From NCBI GenBank assembly GCA_037141455.1, contig JBAXCN010000003.1, forward strand, positions 4,218-68,217: DNA of 64,000 nucleotides, in the 5' to 3' direction. The notes below the pieces were generated by a model. That model did not search any database. It saw only the letters and a list, made by a program, of their open reading frames with translations, and was not told the DNA's origin. This DNA comes from Bacteroidota bacterium (GTDB lineage Bacteria; Bacteroidota; Bacteroidia; UKL13-3). The position numbers and the translations under genes were made by a program. This document shows positions 1,138-62,577 of this stretch, in pieces (the stretch's first letter is position 1; each line of letters starts with the position of its first letter).

Positions 1138-2508
1138 ATGGCAAAAACATCAACTTCTTTTTTTTGTAAAAATTGTGGTGCTTCTTCAAGTAAATGGGTT
1201 GGAAAATGCAATAGTTGTGGCGAGTGGAATACTTATGTTGAAGAAGTAATTCACAAAGAAAAACTTGATTACAAAAGTACCTGGAAAGAAATGGGTAACG
1301 CACAAAGGGCATTAAAACCAGTTCCAATTAACCAAGTAGAACAAAAAAACGATGTGCGTTTAGCATTAAAAGATGGAGAATTTAGTAGGGTTTTAGGTGG
1401 TGGTTTGGTTCCTGGTTCGGTAATATTAATAGGAGGGGAGCCCGGTATTGGTAAATCAACTTTATTGCTTCAAATAGCATTGCAATTTAACAATTTAAAA
1501 GTACTTTATATAAGTGGTGAGGAAAGTGATACACAAATAAAAATGCGTGCAGAGCGATTGCCATTTACTAACGATAATTGTTATTTATATACTGAAACTT
1601 CAACCCAAAAAATTGGGAAAGCTTTTCAAGAATTACAACCCGATATTGTGATTGTTGATTCCATTCAAACTTTACAAAGTGAATTAATAGATGCTACGCC
1701 AGGAAGTATTTCGCAGGTAAAAGAAACTGCTGGCGACATGATTCGATTTGCAAAAGAAACAGGAACACCCGTTTTTTTAATTGGCCACATTACCAAAGAT
1801 GGAACCATTGCCGGACCAAAATTATTAGAACACATGGTGGATACTGTGTTACAATTTGAAGGCGACAGACATCACGTTTATAGAATTTTAAGAACTACCA
1901 AAAATCGTTTTGGAAGCACCAGTGAAATTGGAATTTATGAAATGCAAAATGGCGGATTAAGAGAGGTTTCAAATCCATCAGAAATATTGATAAGTCAGCG
2001 CGATGAAGCATTAAGTGGAGTAACTATTGCTGCTACCATAGAAGGCATGCGTCCATTGTTAATTGAAACCCAAGCATTGGTTAGCCAAGCTGTATATGGC
2101 ACTCCGCAGCGTAATAGTAATGGCTACGACACCAAAAGACTAAATATGCTTTTGGCAATTTTGGAAAAAAAATGTGGTTTACGAATGGGCATGCAAGATG
2201 TGTTTATAAATATTGCTGGTGGTTTGCGTGTTGAAGACCCAGGAATTGATTTAGCCATCGTAGCAGCTATTGTTTCAAGTTATGAAAACATTGCCATTGA
2301 TAGTAAAATATGTTTTGTAGGCGAAGTTGGTTTAAGTGGCGAAATTAGAGCTGTTAACCGAATAGAACAACGATTAAGTGAAGCTGAAAAATTAGGATTT
2401 ACTACTATTTATTTATCCAAGTTTAATAAATTGCCAAAGCAAAGCAGTGGCATAAAAATAATTCAAATAAGTAAAATAGATGAAATGTTGAGTTTTCTTT
2501 TTGGTTAA
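1138..2508 (+). CDS. radA: DNA repair protein RadA/Sms
   Basis: N-terminal C4 zinc finger (CKNCG...CNSCGEW), Walker A GEPGIGKST, KNRFG motif and a Lon-like C-terminal domain. The ORF track starts at TTG 1126; ATG 1138 (MAKTSTSFFC) is the more likely start. Confidence 0.92.
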   Translation: MAKTSTSFFCKNCGASSSKWVGKCNSCGEWNTYVEEVIHKEKLDYKSTWKEMGNAQRALKPVPINQVEQKNDVRLALKDGEFSRVLGGGLVPGSVILIGGEPGIGKSTLLLQIALQFNNLKVLYISGEESDTQIKMRAERLPFTNDNCYLYTETSTQKIGKAFQELQPDIVIVDSIQTLQSELIDATPGSISQVKETAGDMIRFAKETGTPVFLIGHITKDGTIAGPKLLEHMVDTVLQFEGDRHHVYRILRTTKNRFGSTSEIGIYEMQNGGLREVSNPSEILISQRDEALSGVTIAATIEGMRPLLIETQALVSQAVYGTPQRNSNGYDTKRLNMLLAILEKKCGLRMGMQDVFINIAGGLRVEDPGIDLAIVAAIVSSYENIAIDSKICFVGEVGLSGEIRAVNRIEQRLSEAEKLGFTTIYLSKFNKLPKQSSGIKIIQISKIDEMLSFLFG

Positions 2509-2534
2509 AAATTAATTGTTAAAATTAAAATGTT

Positions 2535-2957
2535 ATGGCAAAAAATAAGACAACTAAAACAGAAAAAGGTGTATTTGATTTTATAAACAAATTTGCTGAT
2601 TCGGAACAAAAACGAATAGATAGTTTAGAGCTATTAAATATAATGCAACAGGTTTCTGGTTATGAACCAAAAATGTGGGGACCATCAATAATTGGCTTTG
2701 GAAATTACCATTACAAATATGAAAGCGGCCACGAAGGTGATGCTCCGCTTATAGGCTTTTCACCGCGCAAAGCAGCTATTTCATTATATATATTTACAGG
2801 TTTAAGTGAGCATATGTATTTACTTGATAATTTTGGTAAATTTAAAATGGGAAAAGCTTGTATTTATATTAAAAAGTTATCAGATATTGATACAAATAGG
2901 TTAGAATTTATTATAACTGAAACCATTAAATATTTAAAAGAAAAATATCCAAAATAA
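2535..2957 (+). CDS. DUF1801 (YdhG-like) domain protein
   Basis: 140 aa. The pattern KMWGPSIIGFGNYHYKYESGHEGDAPLIGFSPRKAAISLY resembles the DUF1801 family. Assigned from memory only. Confidence 0.55.
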   Translation: MAKNKTTKTEKGVFDFINKFADSEQKRIDSLELLNIMQQVSGYEPKMWGPSIIGFGNYHYKYESGHEGDAPLIGFSPRKAAISLYIFTGLSEHMYLLDNFGKFKMGKACIYIKKLSDIDTNRLEFIITETIKYLKEKYPK

Positions 2958-3020
2958 TTAGCCTTAGCCGGTTCGGATTCTGCCCGTTGCTGGTGTTTTA
3001 GCGCAGCGGCACCAACAACA

Positions 3021-3060
3021 ATTCACCGCATTCGTTTGCATCTTGCGAGTGAATGTATTA
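3021..3060. repeat. Inverted partial copy of the GC-rich element that flanks parDE
   Basis: The reverse complement (CATTCACTCGCAAGATGCAAACGAATGCGGTGAAT) aligns with the 3' half of the copies at 3097 and 3798, sharing ACTCGCAAGATGC exactly with the 3798 copy. Confidence 0.45.
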
Positions 3061-3096
3061 ACAAGCCTCCGGCTCATTATTGTTTTTAAAATTTAA

Positions 3097-3160
3097 GTTA
3101 GGCGGGACGCCAAATAAACTCACACTCGCAACATGCGAGCAAGCGATTGGAATGTTTATT
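3097..3160 (+). repeat. GC-rich hairpin repeat, left copy flanking parDE
   Basis: GTTAGGCGGGACGCCAAATAAACTCACACTCGCAACATGCGAGC... The first 44 nt differ at 2 positions from 3798-3841. It contains the hairpins GGCG-GGA-CGCC and CTCGCA-ACA-TGCGAG. Confidence 0.75.
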
Positions 3161-3455
3161 CTTGGATTCTATTTTTTAAATCCATACTAGCATGAAGAAA
3201 TCTAATAATTTCTATTTCTTTTTCATTTAGAATTCTGTAAAAAATAACATGTTGGCCAGATAGGTAACCAAAAATATCTTTCTCAATTTCAATGTAATTC
3301 TTTCCTAAAATTTGATTTTCTGATAATTCTTTGCAGTCTTCAAGCAATTCAAAGTAATATTTGTCGGCTTGATTTTCGGACCAAACTTCATACGTATAAT
3401 CCCAAATTTCAGATAAATCTTGAACAGCTTTGTTTGTTAAATGATATTTAGTCAT
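3156..3455 (-). CDS. parE: Type II toxin, ParE/RelE family
   Basis: 99 aa. It overlaps the upstream antitoxin gene by 8 nt. The sequence (LTNKAVQDLSEIWDYT...HVIFYRI...IEIIRFLHASMD) is typical of ParE toxins. Confidence 0.85.
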   Translation of the reverse strand: MTKYHLTNKAVQDLSEIWDYTYEVWSENQADKYYFELLEDCKELSENQILGKNYIEIEKDIFGYLSGQHVIFYRILNEKEIEIIRFLHASMDLKNRIQE

Positions 3456-3696
3456 TTCTCTTTTTTGCTTTTAACAATTCAAGGTGTTTTTTAGGGTTAA
3501 AATTTTCAGCAATTCCGCTTTCAATGCCTTCATTGATTGCCTTTTTAAGTATGTGTATTTTATTCTCTTCTCCTTCTAATAACCTTAAACCAGCTCTAAT
3601 TACTTCGCTTGCATTTTTATACCTACCTTCCAACACCTTGTTGTCCACAAAATTTTCAAAATAATCTCCTAAAGAAACCGATGTATTTCGTCCCAT
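3448..3696 (-). CDS. parD: Type II antitoxin, ParD family (ribbon-helix-helix)
   Basis: 82 aa. The motif RYKNASEVIRAGLRLLE is characteristic of ParD-type antitoxins, and the gene lies immediately upstream of parE in the same operon. Confidence 0.85.
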   Translation of the reverse strand: MGRNTSVSLGDYFENFVDNKVLEGRYKNASEVIRAGLRLLEGEENKIHILKKAINEGIESGIAENFNPKKHLELLKAKKRND

Positions 3697-3726
3697 AATT
3701 TTAATTTTGTTTTTATTTTTTCAAAG

Positions 3727-3743
3727 TTACCAAAAATTGGTAA
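3727..3743. promoter_or_regulatory. Candidate parDE operator palindrome
   Basis: TTACCAA-AAA-TTGGTAA is a perfect 7-bp inverted repeat about 30 nt upstream of the parD start. Type II antitoxins commonly autoregulate through such palindromes. Confidence 0.4.
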
Positions 3744-3797
3744 TTTTCAAATAAAAGTTCCATTCTATTATTCGTTTATAAAACCCAATAAGCTTTT

Positions 3798-3857
3798 GTT
3801 AGGCGGGACGCCAAATAAACTCAAACTCGCAAGATGCGAGCGAGTGCGGAATTTATC
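3798..3857 (+). repeat. GC-rich hairpin repeat, right copy flanking parDE
   Basis: Same orientation as 3097-3160 and offset by 701 bp: GTTAGGCGGGACGCCAAATAAACTCAAACTCGCAAGATGCGAGC... Confidence 0.75.
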
Positions 3858-3922
3858 TATAGTAAAGAAATTTTTACATTAAATTTTAAAGGCAGTAATT
3901 AATTCTTATGTTTGCCTAGTTA

Positions 3923-4945
3923 ATGAACAGAAACCTCACAGATGGTATAAACTTACTTTCCAAATTAAATGGAAAACGAATTTTTAATGCCTTTAAATTA
4001 TACAGTAGTTATTATTTCTCAAAAACTTTAAAAAAACCTATTCAATGGGGAATGCCATTGAGTATGGAAATTGAACCAACTACCAGTTGCAATTTGCGCT
4101 GCCCTCAATGCCCTAGTGGGTTACGCGAATTTACACGCGATACTGGCATGTTGGACTTGAACCTATACAAAAAAATTTTAGATGAAATTCATCCAGAATT
4201 GGTGTGGTTAATTTTGTATTTTCAAGGGGAACCATTTTTAAATAAAAATTTTTTAGAATTTGTAAAATATGCTGCTACTAAAAATGTGTACACAGCTACC
4301 AGCAGCAACGCCCATTATTTTACCGATGAAATGGCAAAAGCTACTGTACAATCGGGGTTGGATAGGTTGATAATTTCGATAGATGGAACTAGCCAAGATA
4401 CTTATGGAAAATACAGAATAGGTGGTAAAATTGAGAAAGTAATTGAAGGCACACAAAATCTATTAAAATGGAAAAAGGAATTAGGTGTTAAAACGCCACA
4501 TATTATTTGGCAGTTTATTGCTTTTAAACACAATGAACACCAAATACCTGAAATAAAAAAATTAGCTAAAGAAATTGGGGTTGATGAATTGGGAATTAAA
4601 ACAGCTCAAATTTACGATTACCAGACAAGTGACGAGTTTATTCCAGAAAACGAAAAACTAAGCAGGTATTCGAAAACCGATGATGGTTATAAAATTAAAA
4701 ATAAATTATTGAACCAATGTTGGCGAATGTGGCGAGGCAGTGTAATAACTTGGGATGGTTTGGTAGTGCCTTGTTGTTTTGATAAAGATGCTACACATAG
4801 ATTTGGAAATGTAAGTAAACAAACCTTTAAAGAAGTTTGGAAAGGCGAGCAATACAATAATTTTAGAAACGCCATTTTAAAAAGCAGAAAAGAAATTGAT
4901 ATATGCACCAACTGCACCGAAGGTACTAAGGTTTGGAGTGAATAG
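3923..4945 (+). CDS. Radical SAM protein with C-terminal SPASM-type Cys cluster
   Basis: CNLRCPQC (CxxxCxxC) at the start of the core domain, and a C-terminal Cys-rich region (CWRMW...PCCFD...CTNC). Confidence 0.8.
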   Translation: MNRNLTDGINLLSKLNGKRIFNAFKLYSSYYFSKTLKKPIQWGMPLSMEIEPTTSCNLRCPQCPSGLREFTRDTGMLDLNLYKKILDEIHPELVWLILYFQGEPFLNKNFLEFVKYAATKNVYTATSSNAHYFTDEMAKATVQSGLDRLIISIDGTSQDTYGKYRIGGKIEKVIEGTQNLLKWKKELGVKTPHIIWQFIAFKHNEHQIPEIKKLAKEIGVDELGIKTAQIYDYQTSDEFIPENEKLSRYSKTDDGYKIKNKLLNQCWRMWRGSVITWDGLVVPCCFDKDATHRFGNVSKQTFKEVWKGEQYNNFRNAILKSRKEIDICTNCTEGTKVWSE

Positions 4946-5014
4946 CGGTTAGTTGATAGCAACGAATTCGTAGAGACGTTGCATGCAACGTCTTAAATTA
5001 TATAGCGGTTAGTT
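4942..5014. repeat. 47-bp insert carrying a perfect 20-bp palindrome, flanked by a 13-bp direct repeat
   Basis: ATAGCGGTTAGTT occurs at 4942-4954 and 5002-5014. The palindrome AGACGTTGCATGCAACGTCT lies at 4974-4993. The first repeat copy overlaps the TAG stop of the radical SAM gene. Confidence 0.65.
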
Positions 5015-14917: not shown

Positions 14918-14974
14918 CTCAAAATTCAATGTATTTTAATTCATTTACTTAGTAATTCACATTCAATAAATGTT

Positions 14975-15122
14975 TTTTAAATTGTTATTGATTAGTTGGG
15001 ATAAATGAATGGATTGATAAATAAAACCAACGAATATTTTTTGTTGTTTGACCCCGATGGGGTCACATGTTTATAATAAACTAAATCGCTCTAAAAATAT
15101 ACGACCCTATCGAGGTCGAACA
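14975..15122 (+). repeat. 148-bp structured element, copy 1
   Basis: Differs at 6 positions from copy 2. Contains the GC-rich hairpins TGACCCCGATGGGGTCA and CGACCCTATCGAGGTCG. Confidence 0.85.
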
Positions 15123-15188
15123 TTTTTATAAAGACCAAAGGAGTTTTTAAAATTGGACTTTATAATTTTTTTCAATTTTAAAAATTGA

Positions 15189-15336
15189 TTTTAAATTGTT
15201 ATGGAATAGTTGGGATAAATGAATGGATTGATAAATAAAACCAACGAATATTTTTTGTTGATTGACCCCGATGGGGTCACATATTTATAATCAACTAAAT
15301 CGCTCTAAAAATATACGACCCCATCGAGGTCGAACA
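15189..15336 (+). repeat. 148-bp structured element, copy 2
   Basis: Offset exactly 214 bp from copy 1 with no indels. Hairpins TGACCCCGATGGGGTCA and CGACCCCATCGAGGTCG, enclosed by GTTGATT/AATCAAC. Confidence 0.85.
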
Positions 15337-61654: not shown

Positions 61655-61728
61655 TCCTTGGTAGCTCAGCTGGTTAGAGCACATGACTGTTAATCATGGG
61701 GTCGCTGGTTCGAGTCCAGCCCAGGGAG
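61655..61728 (+). tRNA. tRNA-Asn (anticodon GTT)
   Basis: Manual fold: acceptor TCCTTGG/CCAGGGA, anticodon stem CATGA/TCATG with loop CTGTTAA, T-arm GCTGGTTCGAGTCCAGC. Confidence 0.9.
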
Positions 61729-61763
61729 CAAAAGCCAATCGTAAATTACGGTTGGCTTTTTTT
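61724..61763 (+). repeat. 40-bp direct repeat, copy 1 (tRNA-Asn 3' end plus its terminator)
   Basis: GGGAGCAAAAGCCAATCGTAAATTACGGTTGGCTTTTTTT, identical to 62538-62577. It contains the terminator hairpin GCCAATCGTA/TACGGTTGGC. Confidence 0.95.
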
Positions 61764-61783
61764 GTTTATAGAATTATTTTTTT

Positions 61784-61800
61784 GTTTTCTATTAGAAAAC
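61784..61800. promoter_or_regulatory. Candidate higBA operator palindrome
   Basis: GTTTTCT-ATT-AGAAAAC, 16 nt upstream of the higB start. Confidence 0.35.
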
Positions 61801-61815
61801 ATTTAATTTTGAAAA

Positions 61816-62127
61816 GTGTTCAATATCATCACCAGAAGAACTTTATTAGCTTATGCCGAAAAATATCCATTAGCTGCTAATGCGCTGTATGAGTGGTATT
61901 ATGAATTGGTAAAATCGGATTTTGAAAACTTCAACGTCTTAAAATTTGTTTATGGTTCTGCTAGTTTGGCCGGAGATGATAGGATTGTTTTCAATATTAT
62001 GGGAAATAAGTTTAGGCTTGTGGTTCGTATTGTTTTTGAATATAAAGCCATACAAATTAAGTGGTTTGGAACACACAAGGAATACGATAAAATAAATGTA
62101 TCAACTATTCAAAATAAAATAAAATAA
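61816..62127 (+). CDS. higB: Type II toxin HigB (mRNA interferase)
   Basis: 103 aa, GTG start. The pattern ...DFENFNVLKFVYGSASLAGDDRIVFNIMGNKFRLVVRIVFEYKAIQIKWFGTHKEYDKI is typical of the HigB family. Confidence 0.85.
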   Translation: MFNIITRRTLLAYAEKYPLAANALYEWYYELVKSDFENFNVLKFVYGSASLAGDDRIVFNIMGNKFRLVVRIVFEYKAIQIKWFGTHKEYDKINVSTIQNKIK

Positions 62128-62483
62128 TGGAACTATCTGTAATAAAAAATAAAACTCAATACGAAGCATACCTGAAATGGGTAGATGAAATGTTTGATAA
62201 AAAGATATTACCAAATTCAACAAATGGAAAAAAAATTGAAGTGGCTTTGTTACTTATTAAACAATATGAAGATGCTCATTTCTCTATCCCTTATCCTGAC
62301 CCTCTTGAAACTATCAAACTAAAAATGACTGAGCTTGGATTAAAAAACAAAGACTTGGTTGGTAAATTTGGTAGTAAGGGTTATGTCTCCTCTCTGTTAA
62401 GTGGTAGAAAACCATTAACACTTGAATTGGCAAGACTTTTTCATCAGGAATTACACATTCCCGCTGAAGTTTTTTTTGCTTAA
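62127..62483 (+). CDS. higA: HigA-type antitoxin with C-terminal HTH
   Basis: TAATG overlap with higB. C-terminal HTH-like LGLKNKDLVGKFGSKGYVSSLLSGRKPLTLELARLF. Confidence 0.8.
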   Translation: MELSVIKNKTQYEAYLKWVDEMFDKKILPNSTNGKKIEVALLLIKQYEDAHFSIPYPDPLETIKLKMTELGLKNKDLVGKFGSKGYVSSLLSGRKPLTLELARLFHQELHIPAEVFFA

Positions 62484-62498
62484 ATTGAATAATTCATA

Positions 62499-62537
62499 CT
62501 CAATTGACTCGTTTTGCTTGCATCTTTTGTCAATGAG
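62499..62537 (+). other. Bulged hairpin abutting the right-hand repeat copy
   Basis: CTCAATTGAC-20 nt-GTCAATGAG (9 bp with one bulged A), ending exactly where the 40-bp repeat begins. Confidence 0.4.
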
Positions 62538-62577
62538 GGGAGCAAAAGCCAATCGTAAATTACGGTTGGCTTTTTTT
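62538..62577 (+). repeat. 40-bp direct repeat, copy 2
   Basis: Identical to 61724-61763 and offset by 814 bp. Confidence 0.95.

Follow-up and report, generated by a model that had tools for sequence, protein, structure and literature searches.

We analyzed a parDE toxin-antitoxin (TA) locus and the small palindromic repeats that bracket it in the genome of a Bacteroidota bacterium. The locus occupies positions 2958-3857 of a 64,000-nt stretch (the window) of contig JBAXCN010000003.1 in assembly GCA_037141455.1, and the window's own genome (designated G000) comprises 3.2 Mb in 174 contigs with 30.7% G+C. Genes were called with profile families (Pfam and NCBIfam/TIGR), and the relatives used for comparison are labelled G001-G018. 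The features of the locus, from left to right in window coordinates, are listed below.

2535..2957, plus strand: DUF1801 gene, left neighbour of the inserted block (PF08818, E=1.9e-11)
2958..2974, plus strand: fragment of a small palindromic repeat, TTAGCCGGTTCGGATT..., at the left edge of the block; the motif is shared with G016 and G015
2975..3020, plus strand: repB unit, GCTGGTGTTTTAGCGCAGCGGCACCAACAAC, of a second family of repetitive extragenic palindromic (REP) sequences, with copies in the genome and the genus
3026..3096, plus strand: left half of a putative REP doublet forming a hairpin (REPIN) of ~125 nt, with terminal inverted repeat, AGCC-TCC-GGCT hairpin and AT-rich spacer
3097..3160, plus strand: right half of the same putative REPIN and left direct copy (elR1), with GGCG-GGA-CGCC hairpin, spacer and CTCGCA-ACA-TGCGAG hairpin
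3156..3455, minus strand: parE toxin gene (PF05016, E=1e-16)
3448..3696, minus strand: parD antitoxin gene, overlapping parE by 8 nt (PF03693, E=9e-24; TIGR02606, 86.5 bits)
3697..3797, minus strand: parDE promoter/operator region, with the palindrome TTACCAAAAATTGGTAA at ~3726-3742 within inverted-repeat pair I7 (3716-3754)
3798..3857, plus strand: lone REP half-unit, the right direct copy (elR2) and right edge of the block, located by direct-repeat and genome search
3923..4945, plus strand: radical-SAM/SPASM gene, right neighbour (PF04055, PF13186)

The initial annotation had described parDE as a unit lying between two same-orientation copies of a GC-rich double-hairpin element, and this description was borne out, with one correction. 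Positions 3097-3143 and 3798-3844 are 94% identical over 47 nt with a start-to-start spacing of 701, and with a 2-nt indel the similarity extends to ~3160 and ~3857 (about 60 nt). The 26-nt head of the repeat, GTTAGGCGGGACGCCAAATAAACTCA, occurs exactly twice in the window and in none of 100 shuffles. Both short hairpins proposed for each copy, GGCG-GGA-CGCC and CTCGCA-N3-TGCGAG, were found, and the G+C content of the element (25 of 47 nt, 53%) is indeed high against 30.7% for the genome. Gene calls agree that the unit between the copies holds parD and parE only, and the parE stop codon (3156-3158) falls, as had been stated, within the left copy's tail. The segment at 3021-3060, which had been taken for a third, partial and inverted copy, turned out to be the left terminal inverted repeat of a single element: it and the left direct copy form the halves of an element of ~125 nt at ~3026-3150, whose left half (3026-3096) aligns with four other full copies in the genome. 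A tandem or CRISPR-like array was unsupported, with two copies only.

Alignment of the copies genome-wide gives the element 24-nt terminal inverted repeats with the consensus GCATTCGCTCGCATCTTGCGAGTG ... CACTCGCAAGATGCGAGCGAATGC. Each half follows a common plan, namely a 4-bp hairpin (AGCC-TCY-GGCT in the left half and GGCG-GGA-CGCC in the right half), an AT-rich spacer and a 6-bp hairpin, CTCGCA-AGA-TGCGAG. The consensus folds as a long imperfect hairpin of 37 pairs in which the left half pairs with the right half, and the element folds more stably than shuffled sequences do (z = -3.1 and -3.4). Moreover, compensatory stem variants are found across the genus, including CTAGCA/TGCTAG in many genomes, CTTGCA/TGCAAG and CTCACA/TGTGAG. 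Within the window, the distal copy is the better pairing partner of the left arm (3825-3849, 88% over 25 nt; pair I1), the proximal one pairing with it over 14 nt (pair I12). An Rfam scan of 2800-4000, a check that the initial annotation had proposed for the element, returned chance-level matches alone (best score 21.3 bits vs a gathering score of 99; all E >= 0.42).

What ties this element to a transposase is its arrangement in two relatives. In G008 (contig C22) and G018 (C11), an open reading frame (ORF) of 176 amino acids (aa) lies exactly between the left and right halves, with the left half adjoining the 3' end of the gene. The encoded protein reaches 108 and 106 bits in G008 and G018 against NF047646 (REP-associated tyrosine transposase, RAYT; cut-off 80), also passes the Pfam model Y1_Tnp, and carries the motifs SNHIH, HFWQ and YIH(M/N)NP (YIHNNP in G018 and YIHMNP in G008). 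Since the RAYT sits between the two halves, the family is assigned to the REP/REPIN class: judged by sequence, the double-hairpin element is best described as a REPIN and its halves as REPs tied to this RAYT. With regard to miniature inverted-repeat transposable elements of DDE insertion sequences, the element does have terminal inverted repeats, and what lies between its halves is a gene for a Y1 RAYT and not for a DDE transposase.

By motifs and length, rather than by phylogeny, the RAYT would fit subclass 2.6 of the TnpA-REP proteins, which occur mostly in Bacteroidetes and whose genes have secondary structures of an atypical kind at their flanks (Quentin et al. 2018, PMC6006769). The likeness extends to size (176 aa vs a mean of 179), to motifs of the NH[LIV]H, WQ and YIH[QN]NP-like types, and to flanking atypical structures that have copies elsewhere in the genome. 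That paper differs from the present case in giving neither a sequence-level account of this repeat family nor an association with TA genes. No GTAG or CGTC tag, the feature that defines the proteobacterial REP super-families, is present in the family consensus; since subclass 2.6 is described as having atypical structures, the absence of the tag does not exclude membership.

A cognate RAYT (at least 79% identity) was found in six of the 19 genus genomes, namely G008, G018 (two copies), G010, G002, G013 and G001 (a pseudogene), and these are mostly the genomes richer in the window's REP. In the same survey, none was detected in G000, G006, G007, G015 and G016. The nearest homologue in G000 (C1:77404-77930) is 65-66% identical and frameshifted, has the HUH motif NQIH and is flanked by a different repeat. 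Besides this remnant, G000 has five further RAYT-like genes, each flanked by a REP family of its own (C23:37267-37818, C35:1280-1831, C67:7572-8078, C112:6156-6683 and C35:22875-23177), as well as two IS200-type TnpA genes (C106 and C118), an unusually rich RAYT/REP set for a 3.2-Mb genome. In addition, directly 5' of the intact RAYT gene of G008 (C22; locus L021, 1780-2120) there are three tandem copies, with a 105-nt period, of a segment that joins the right REP half to the promoter and opening codons of the RAYT gene (ATGAGTGAA); by analogy, this triplet resembles the RAYT-driven tandem amplification that has been proposed for bacterial interspersed mosaic elements (BIMEs).

We then asked where else the element occurs. 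Five full copies are present in G000 (window ~3026-3150, C2:81200-81330, C47:3311-3438, C12:26146-26268 and C24:7258-7376), and 3798-3857 is the sole half-unit without a left partner; all of these copies, five doublets and one singlet, are intergenic. No obvious target duplication was noticed at the five copies, although no systematic examination was made. The other four full copies adjoin rpe, dut, a gene of the uracil-DNA glycosylase (UDG) family and a fatty-acid hydroxylase gene, and one of them also adjoins a CdiI-like gene; these neighbours rule out a TA-specific association of the repeat. A REP-type repeat scattered without relation to TA genes was what the initial annotation had named as speaking against its own proposal, and the genome-wide count, with four copies beside non-TA genes, largely came out that way. 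All 19 genus genomes carry 2-22 half-units (19-nt core, up to 2 mismatches), the core is nearly absent from 16 other genera of the family, and a reversed control pattern gave zero matches. The same-orientation REP units around parDE are thus ordinary members of the REP family and not a TA-specific device. As for the two shorter repeats at the left edge of the block, repB has 12 copies in G000, of which four stand in tandem 5' of the RAYT-like gene remnant at C35:22875-23177 and one on its other side, and copies at 94-96% identity occur in many genus members. The TTAGCCGGTTCGGATT motif opens a repeat cluster 3' of radA in G016 and G015 and is missing from G018.

The parDE module itself appears to be a complete type II TA module with its own operator, to judge from its sequence. 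The matches to PF03693 and PF05016 run near the full length of the profiles, the sequences have what type II ParD/ParE proteins call for, and the palindrome TTACCAAAAATTGGTAA (pair I7) is kept in all relatives of the module. One metatranscriptome contig is identical to 3358-3627 and spans the parD/parE junction; subject to the customary reservation about DNA carry-over, the two genes are therefore probably co-transcribed in nature. Both REP copies give terminator-like scores on the parDE strand, with a hairpin and a T-rich tail, TGAGTTTATT (three sites vs 0.5 expected), and the hairpin of elR1, at 3141-3123, and its tail lie shortly 3' of the parE stop codon. The downstream REP would probably end or stabilise the parDE transcript by means of this hairpin and tail.

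Comparison with the genus places the block as a recent arrival. In most members, radA or a recJ-like gene stands directly 5' of the radical-SAM gene with no repeats. The closest relative, G018, has the order radA, DUF1801, 66 nt and radical-SAM gene, without REPs and parDE at the site, and window 2958-~3855 is an insertion relative to it; its DUF1801 gene is 93% identical, its radical-SAM gene 95% identical and its housekeeping DNA 88-93% identical to the window genome. By contrast with G018, three other relatives (G006, G007 and G016) show the order REP, parE, parD, promoter, REP and radical-SAM gene with the same junctions as G000: ...AAATTTAA|GTTAGGCG and AGCTTT(T)|GTTAGGCG are kept in all four genomes. 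The left REP has no left-half partner in G007 and G016, and the similarity of G000 to the three relatives ends at the outer end of the right REP. The REP-parE-parD-REP bracket arose once and is common to the four species.

The block and its surroundings differ markedly in their divergence. DNA identity to G000 amounts to 92-95% for parE (G006, G007, G015 and G016) and 89-94% for region 3697-3797 (G006, G007 and G016), vs 77-80% for the radical-SAM gene and 70-90% for housekeeping DNA elsewhere in the window in the latter three genomes. At third codon positions, parD/parE retain 84-92% identity in G006, G007, G015 and G016, and the radical-SAM gene 51-59% in G006, G007 and G016 and 85.6% in G018. 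Because third-codon identity is 84-92% in parDE vs 51-59% in the radical-SAM gene, the block has been exchanged horizontally, and by these values it crossed species borders much later than the species diverged.

Two further genomes carry the module in other surroundings. In G015, the same parDE (94-95% identical) lies between direct copies of a ~240-nt composite block with the order repB, partial left half, repB, linker and right half, and in G002 a parDE copy 86-89% identical is found at another locus without the window's REPs. One metagenome contig is colinear with the window over 2146-4331. In a search of genome and metagenome contigs encoding close ParE relatives, the REP with parDE was limited to the four genus members already known to have it. 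A pairwise comparison of ten parDE-flanking REP copies from five species showed all of them to be near the consensus, with the right-hand copies of G007 and G016 being orthologous. The initial annotation had also proposed to compare relatives for an empty site with a single repeat, whose absence would speak against its proposal. No such allele was present in 18 genus genomes and four metagenome assemblies; empty sites in relatives carry no repeat at all, and the closest relative is without the whole block. Metagenome joints that seemed to skip parDE, as a single-REP allele would, turned out to carry the spacers of further REPIN copies, such as TTGAAAATGTAAATAAAAAG, the spacer of the copy on contig C47. 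The idea of a TA cassette defined by its flanking repeats, implied by the initial annotation, is partly supported: the repeats belong to a REP/REPIN family without TA linkage, but some of the idea is upheld by the junctions conserved in four species, the signature of horizontal transfer, the lack of the whole block in the closest relative and the direct repeats found around the wider parDE family.

To see parDE in a wider frame, about 125-127 loci encoding ParE relatives were surveyed, 90 of them with full flanks. A direct repeat of at least 35 nt surrounds parDE in 20 of the 90 full-flank loci and an inverted repeat in one of the 90, vs 0-4 of ~80 in shifted controls, and the direct repeats form ~20 unrelated sequence groups. 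At ~24 of 127 loci (within L039-L149), an R'-like box, GTTAACTGTA, stands ~89 nt 5' of the parD start codon and is matched, as its reverse complement, by an R''-like box, TACAGTTAAC, 3-4 nt past the parE stop codon. Such start and end boxes co-vary (GTTACCAGTA/TACTGGTAAC, GTTGGCAGTA/TACTGCCAAC and GTTGGCTGTT/AACAGCCAAC), which is the hallmark of integron R'/R'' sites. The enrichment of direct repeats around the parDE family is because of these integron-type attC sites, and in many Flavobacterium, Chitinophagales-type and other Bacteroidota genomes the family takes the form of a true integron-style cassette. The window's lineage has the same module without integron machinery, bounded by REPs.

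The most extensive case is a metagenome-assembled Flavobacterium chromosome (G138), which has at least 173 matches to an attC-like repeat of ~150 nt (L059 and L179-L181), all of those listed being on the same strand. Most of the repeats lie at C1:1,938,796-2,054,764, with a second cluster at 2,678,422-2,682,869; in the stretches fetched, the copies are spaced ~0.2-3.5 kb apart with mostly small same-strand ORFs between them, and parDE is among the cassettes. The array starts just past a 582-aa IntI-like tyrosine recombinase (TIGR02249, 218.7 bits, cut-off 265), and in the cassettes examined the first bases are the reverse complement of the box that opens the cassette's own downstream repeat, with the crossover ACG|TT. 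With this layout, the array has the appearance of a sedentary integron of very large size. For the Bacteroidetes, IntegronFinder 2.0 listed only a single complete integron.

Three further loci also have repeats around parDE. In Flavobacterium gillisiae (L172, G135:C8:81206-83477), a 285-nt repeat alternates with two cassettes in the order repeat, MNT/HepT, repeat, parDE and repeat; a 347-aa IntI-like recombinase lies ~6 kb from this array, the genome holds additional copies of the repeat outside it, and the opening ~80 nt of the repeat, in antisense, resemble the 3' end of a group II intron (RF00029, 32.1 bits, gathering score 40). A distant parDE (56% ParE identity) at L104 (CAMDXE010000062.1) lies between direct copies of a 171-nt REPIN-like element whose arms, CTTGCATCTTGCAAG and AGCCTCTGGC, resemble the REP design of the window. 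At L038 in Flavobacterium sp. ZS1P14 (G142:C16:91708-114910), the parDE repeat is a direct repeat of a tRNA 3' end plus terminator (134 nt); it is found in 6-7 copies on one strand across 23 kb, a pattern suggestive of successive insertions at a single tRNA gene.

Taken together, a REP/REPIN family with parDE as an accessory module in an exchanged block is the best explanation of the locus, and we consider it likely. The element would be non-autonomous selfish DNA whose spread depends on a RAYT of the Bacteroidota type (HUH/Y1), with G000 keeping relics, that is, five doublets and one singlet and no intact cognate RAYT. In the window, parDE sits within a compact group of REP-type repeats (2958-3857) that forms an insertion between the DUF1801 and radical-SAM genes, and the REPs at either end of the block probably acted as portable stretches of homology, or as recombination points, during its movement. 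Several observations weigh against this explanation. The copy number is low for a REP family (2-22 half-units per genome), the GTAG tag of proteobacterial REPs is missing, the five genomes with a bracketed parDE are all without a cognate RAYT, though three of them are 65-88% complete, and REP activity in these five carriers is historical at best. The derived bases GTTA and AAAT shared by the same-orientation copies, along with a left arm that pairs better with the distal copy, are hints of a particular duplication or insertion and not of REPs accumulating at random, and the ~240-nt composite bracket of G015 suggests a recurrent process. In addition, the terminator role of the REPs is a prediction from a consensus scan. 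The bracket may have come from one REP-mediated duplication/insertion or from two separate REP insertions; the shared GTTA/AAAT bases, the left-arm pairing with the distal copy and the arrangement in G015 are hints of a single event. It may also be that REP-parDE-REP is a translocatable cassette, in which RAYT cleavage at one and the same position of the two same-orientation REPs, or RecA recombination between them, releases a circle with parDE and one REP that re-inserts at a REP or REPIN, regenerating the direct-repeat bracket, while the addictive TA pair keeps the deletion-prone structure in place. Such a cassette would account for the interspecies high-identity block ending exactly at the outer end of the right REP and bearing the signature of horizontal transfer, for a left arm that pairs best with the distal REP as if elR1 and parDE had entered a pre-existing REPIN, and for the second direct-repeat arrangement around the same parDE in G015; the RAYT-linked tandem triplication of REP and adjacent DNA in G008 (105-nt period) also fits, and E. 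coli TnpA-REP cleaves far from the REP and transfers strands in vitro, with an excised-circle model having been published (PMC3333891). However, the unit occurs at one locus type only, 5' of the radical-SAM gene, and never beside a different REP copy, neither a single-REP allele nor a circle junction was found in the genus genomes and metagenome contigs, the five carrier genomes are all without the cognate RAYT, and G002 has the module without these REPs, which makes the cassette, although plausible in its mechanism, an unlikely alternative. Somewhat more doubtful is a bolder version, in which, within this genus, REP/RAYT took over the role that attC/IntI plays for the parDE family in Flavobacterium and a one-REP circle was excised and re-inserted at REPs by HUH activity or REP-REP recombination; if true, REPs would be carriers of cargo genes and not mere selfish hairpins.

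Two readings that give the repeats a different nature fare far worse than a REP/REPIN family. A cis-regulatory RNA or small RNA dedicated to parDE, with the role of a structure in the 3' untranslated region or of an antisense regulator, would suit the stable fold, the position of the element immediately 3' of parE and the terminator-like appearance of both copies on the coding strand. Yet parDE has no connection with four of the five full copies in G000 or with most of those in relatives, Rfam gave no match, the conservation is accounted for by the link to the RAYT, and the metatranscriptome contig covers 3358-3627 only, with the element outside it; we regard this role as very improbable. Hardly any weight is left for the repeats being degenerate integron attC sites and parDE a gene cassette moved by an IntI-type integrase. 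The idea draws on GTTAGGC, which fits the attC core consensus GTTRRRY, on the co-varying complementarity between cassette start and parE end at ~24 of 127 related loci, and on the Flavobacterium array with its IntI-like recombinase and a cassette of this parDE; moreover, ~125-nt same-orientation palindromes on both sides of a promoter-bearing TA module recall integron cassettes such as those of the Vibrio VCR arrays, among which TA cassettes are frequent. The window nevertheless has none of the R''/R' geometry, the G|TT crossover signature, the array and the IntI that attC membership entails. Its conserved part lies on the wrong side of G|TT, with GTTAGGC at its inner end, other family members are without GTTAGGC and have AATGGCG or AAGGGCG in place of GTTAGGCG, no GCCTAA box occurs 5' of position 3798, and the longest inverted match between start and end is 7 nt of REP stem, no better than the control. 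Furthermore, no integrase reached the cut-off in G000 (best TIGR02249 score 103.7 bits vs 265), a k-mer scan of the assembly found no k-mer with more than 15 copies and no repeat array, and the two halves flank a RAYT gene, not cassettes.

Other repeats were observed in the window besides those at parDE. At the stop codon of the radical-SAM gene (4942-5014), there is a 47-bp insert with a 13-bp duplication, ATAGCGGTTAGTT, that carries a palindrome, AGACGTTGCATGCAACGTCT; its 18-mer has eight copies in the genome and the variant ACGTTTAATTAAACGTCT has 15, and this is a further family of small mobile palindromes. At 14961-15336 lies a direct repeat of 162 nt (93% identity, 214-nt period). A second TA locus, higBA (61655-62577), to which the initial annotation had likened parDE, follows tRNA-Asn (61655-61729), and a perfect 40-nt direct repeat (61724-61763 and 62538-62577), composed of the last tRNA bases and a terminator-like palindrome, brackets higB (PF09907) and higA. 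G006 has the same layout, and repeat-flanked higBA occurs at other loci in G016 and G007. Since in G007 the spacer and repeat also follow unrelated genes, the higBA repeat, too, is a multi-copy palindromic element.

Among known systems, the closest is REPIN-RAYT, as in Pseudomonas and in the E. coli REP/BIME with TnpA-REP ('REPtron'). The shared traits are extragenic imperfect palindromes, inverted doublets folding as a long hairpin, singlets, a Y1/HUH transposase gene flanked by two inverted units, lineage specificity, and clusters with tandem amplification (G018:C11 and G008:C22). Unlike in those systems, there are 2-22 half-units and not hundreds, each unit has two small hairpins in place of one long stem, no GTAG tag is present, and many genus members, G000 among them, have no RAYT or a decayed one. 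The pdif modules of Acinetobacter plasmids are likewise small units, TA pairs among them, that lie between recombination sites and contain no mobility gene; pdif sites, however, are 28-bp XerC/D sites, inverted and on plasmids, whereas the window repeats are ~60-nt REP units, direct and chromosomal. Another parallel is ccdO157, a TA locus that E. coli carries in its variable folA-apaH spacer (Mine et al. 2009, reviewed in PMC3184786). According to the part of the review that deals with it, this is likewise a chromosomal TA locus of variable presence in a hypervariable intergenic spot, with a REP in about half of the strains; the TA family and the phylum are different, and that passage makes no mention of a direct-repeat bracket (PMC3184786).

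In summary, a REP/REPIN family and its cognate RAYT are here defined at sequence level in an uncultured freshwater genus of Bacteroidia; for this phylum, descriptions of RAYT-linked repeats have until now gone no further than "atypical secondary structures". The locus is also a clean case of a REP-bounded TA block that has crossed species borders, which makes the question of REP cargo testable. The integron-style cassettes of parDE relatives in Flavobacterium-type genomes, with at least 173 repeats in one array, may be the more valuable lead.

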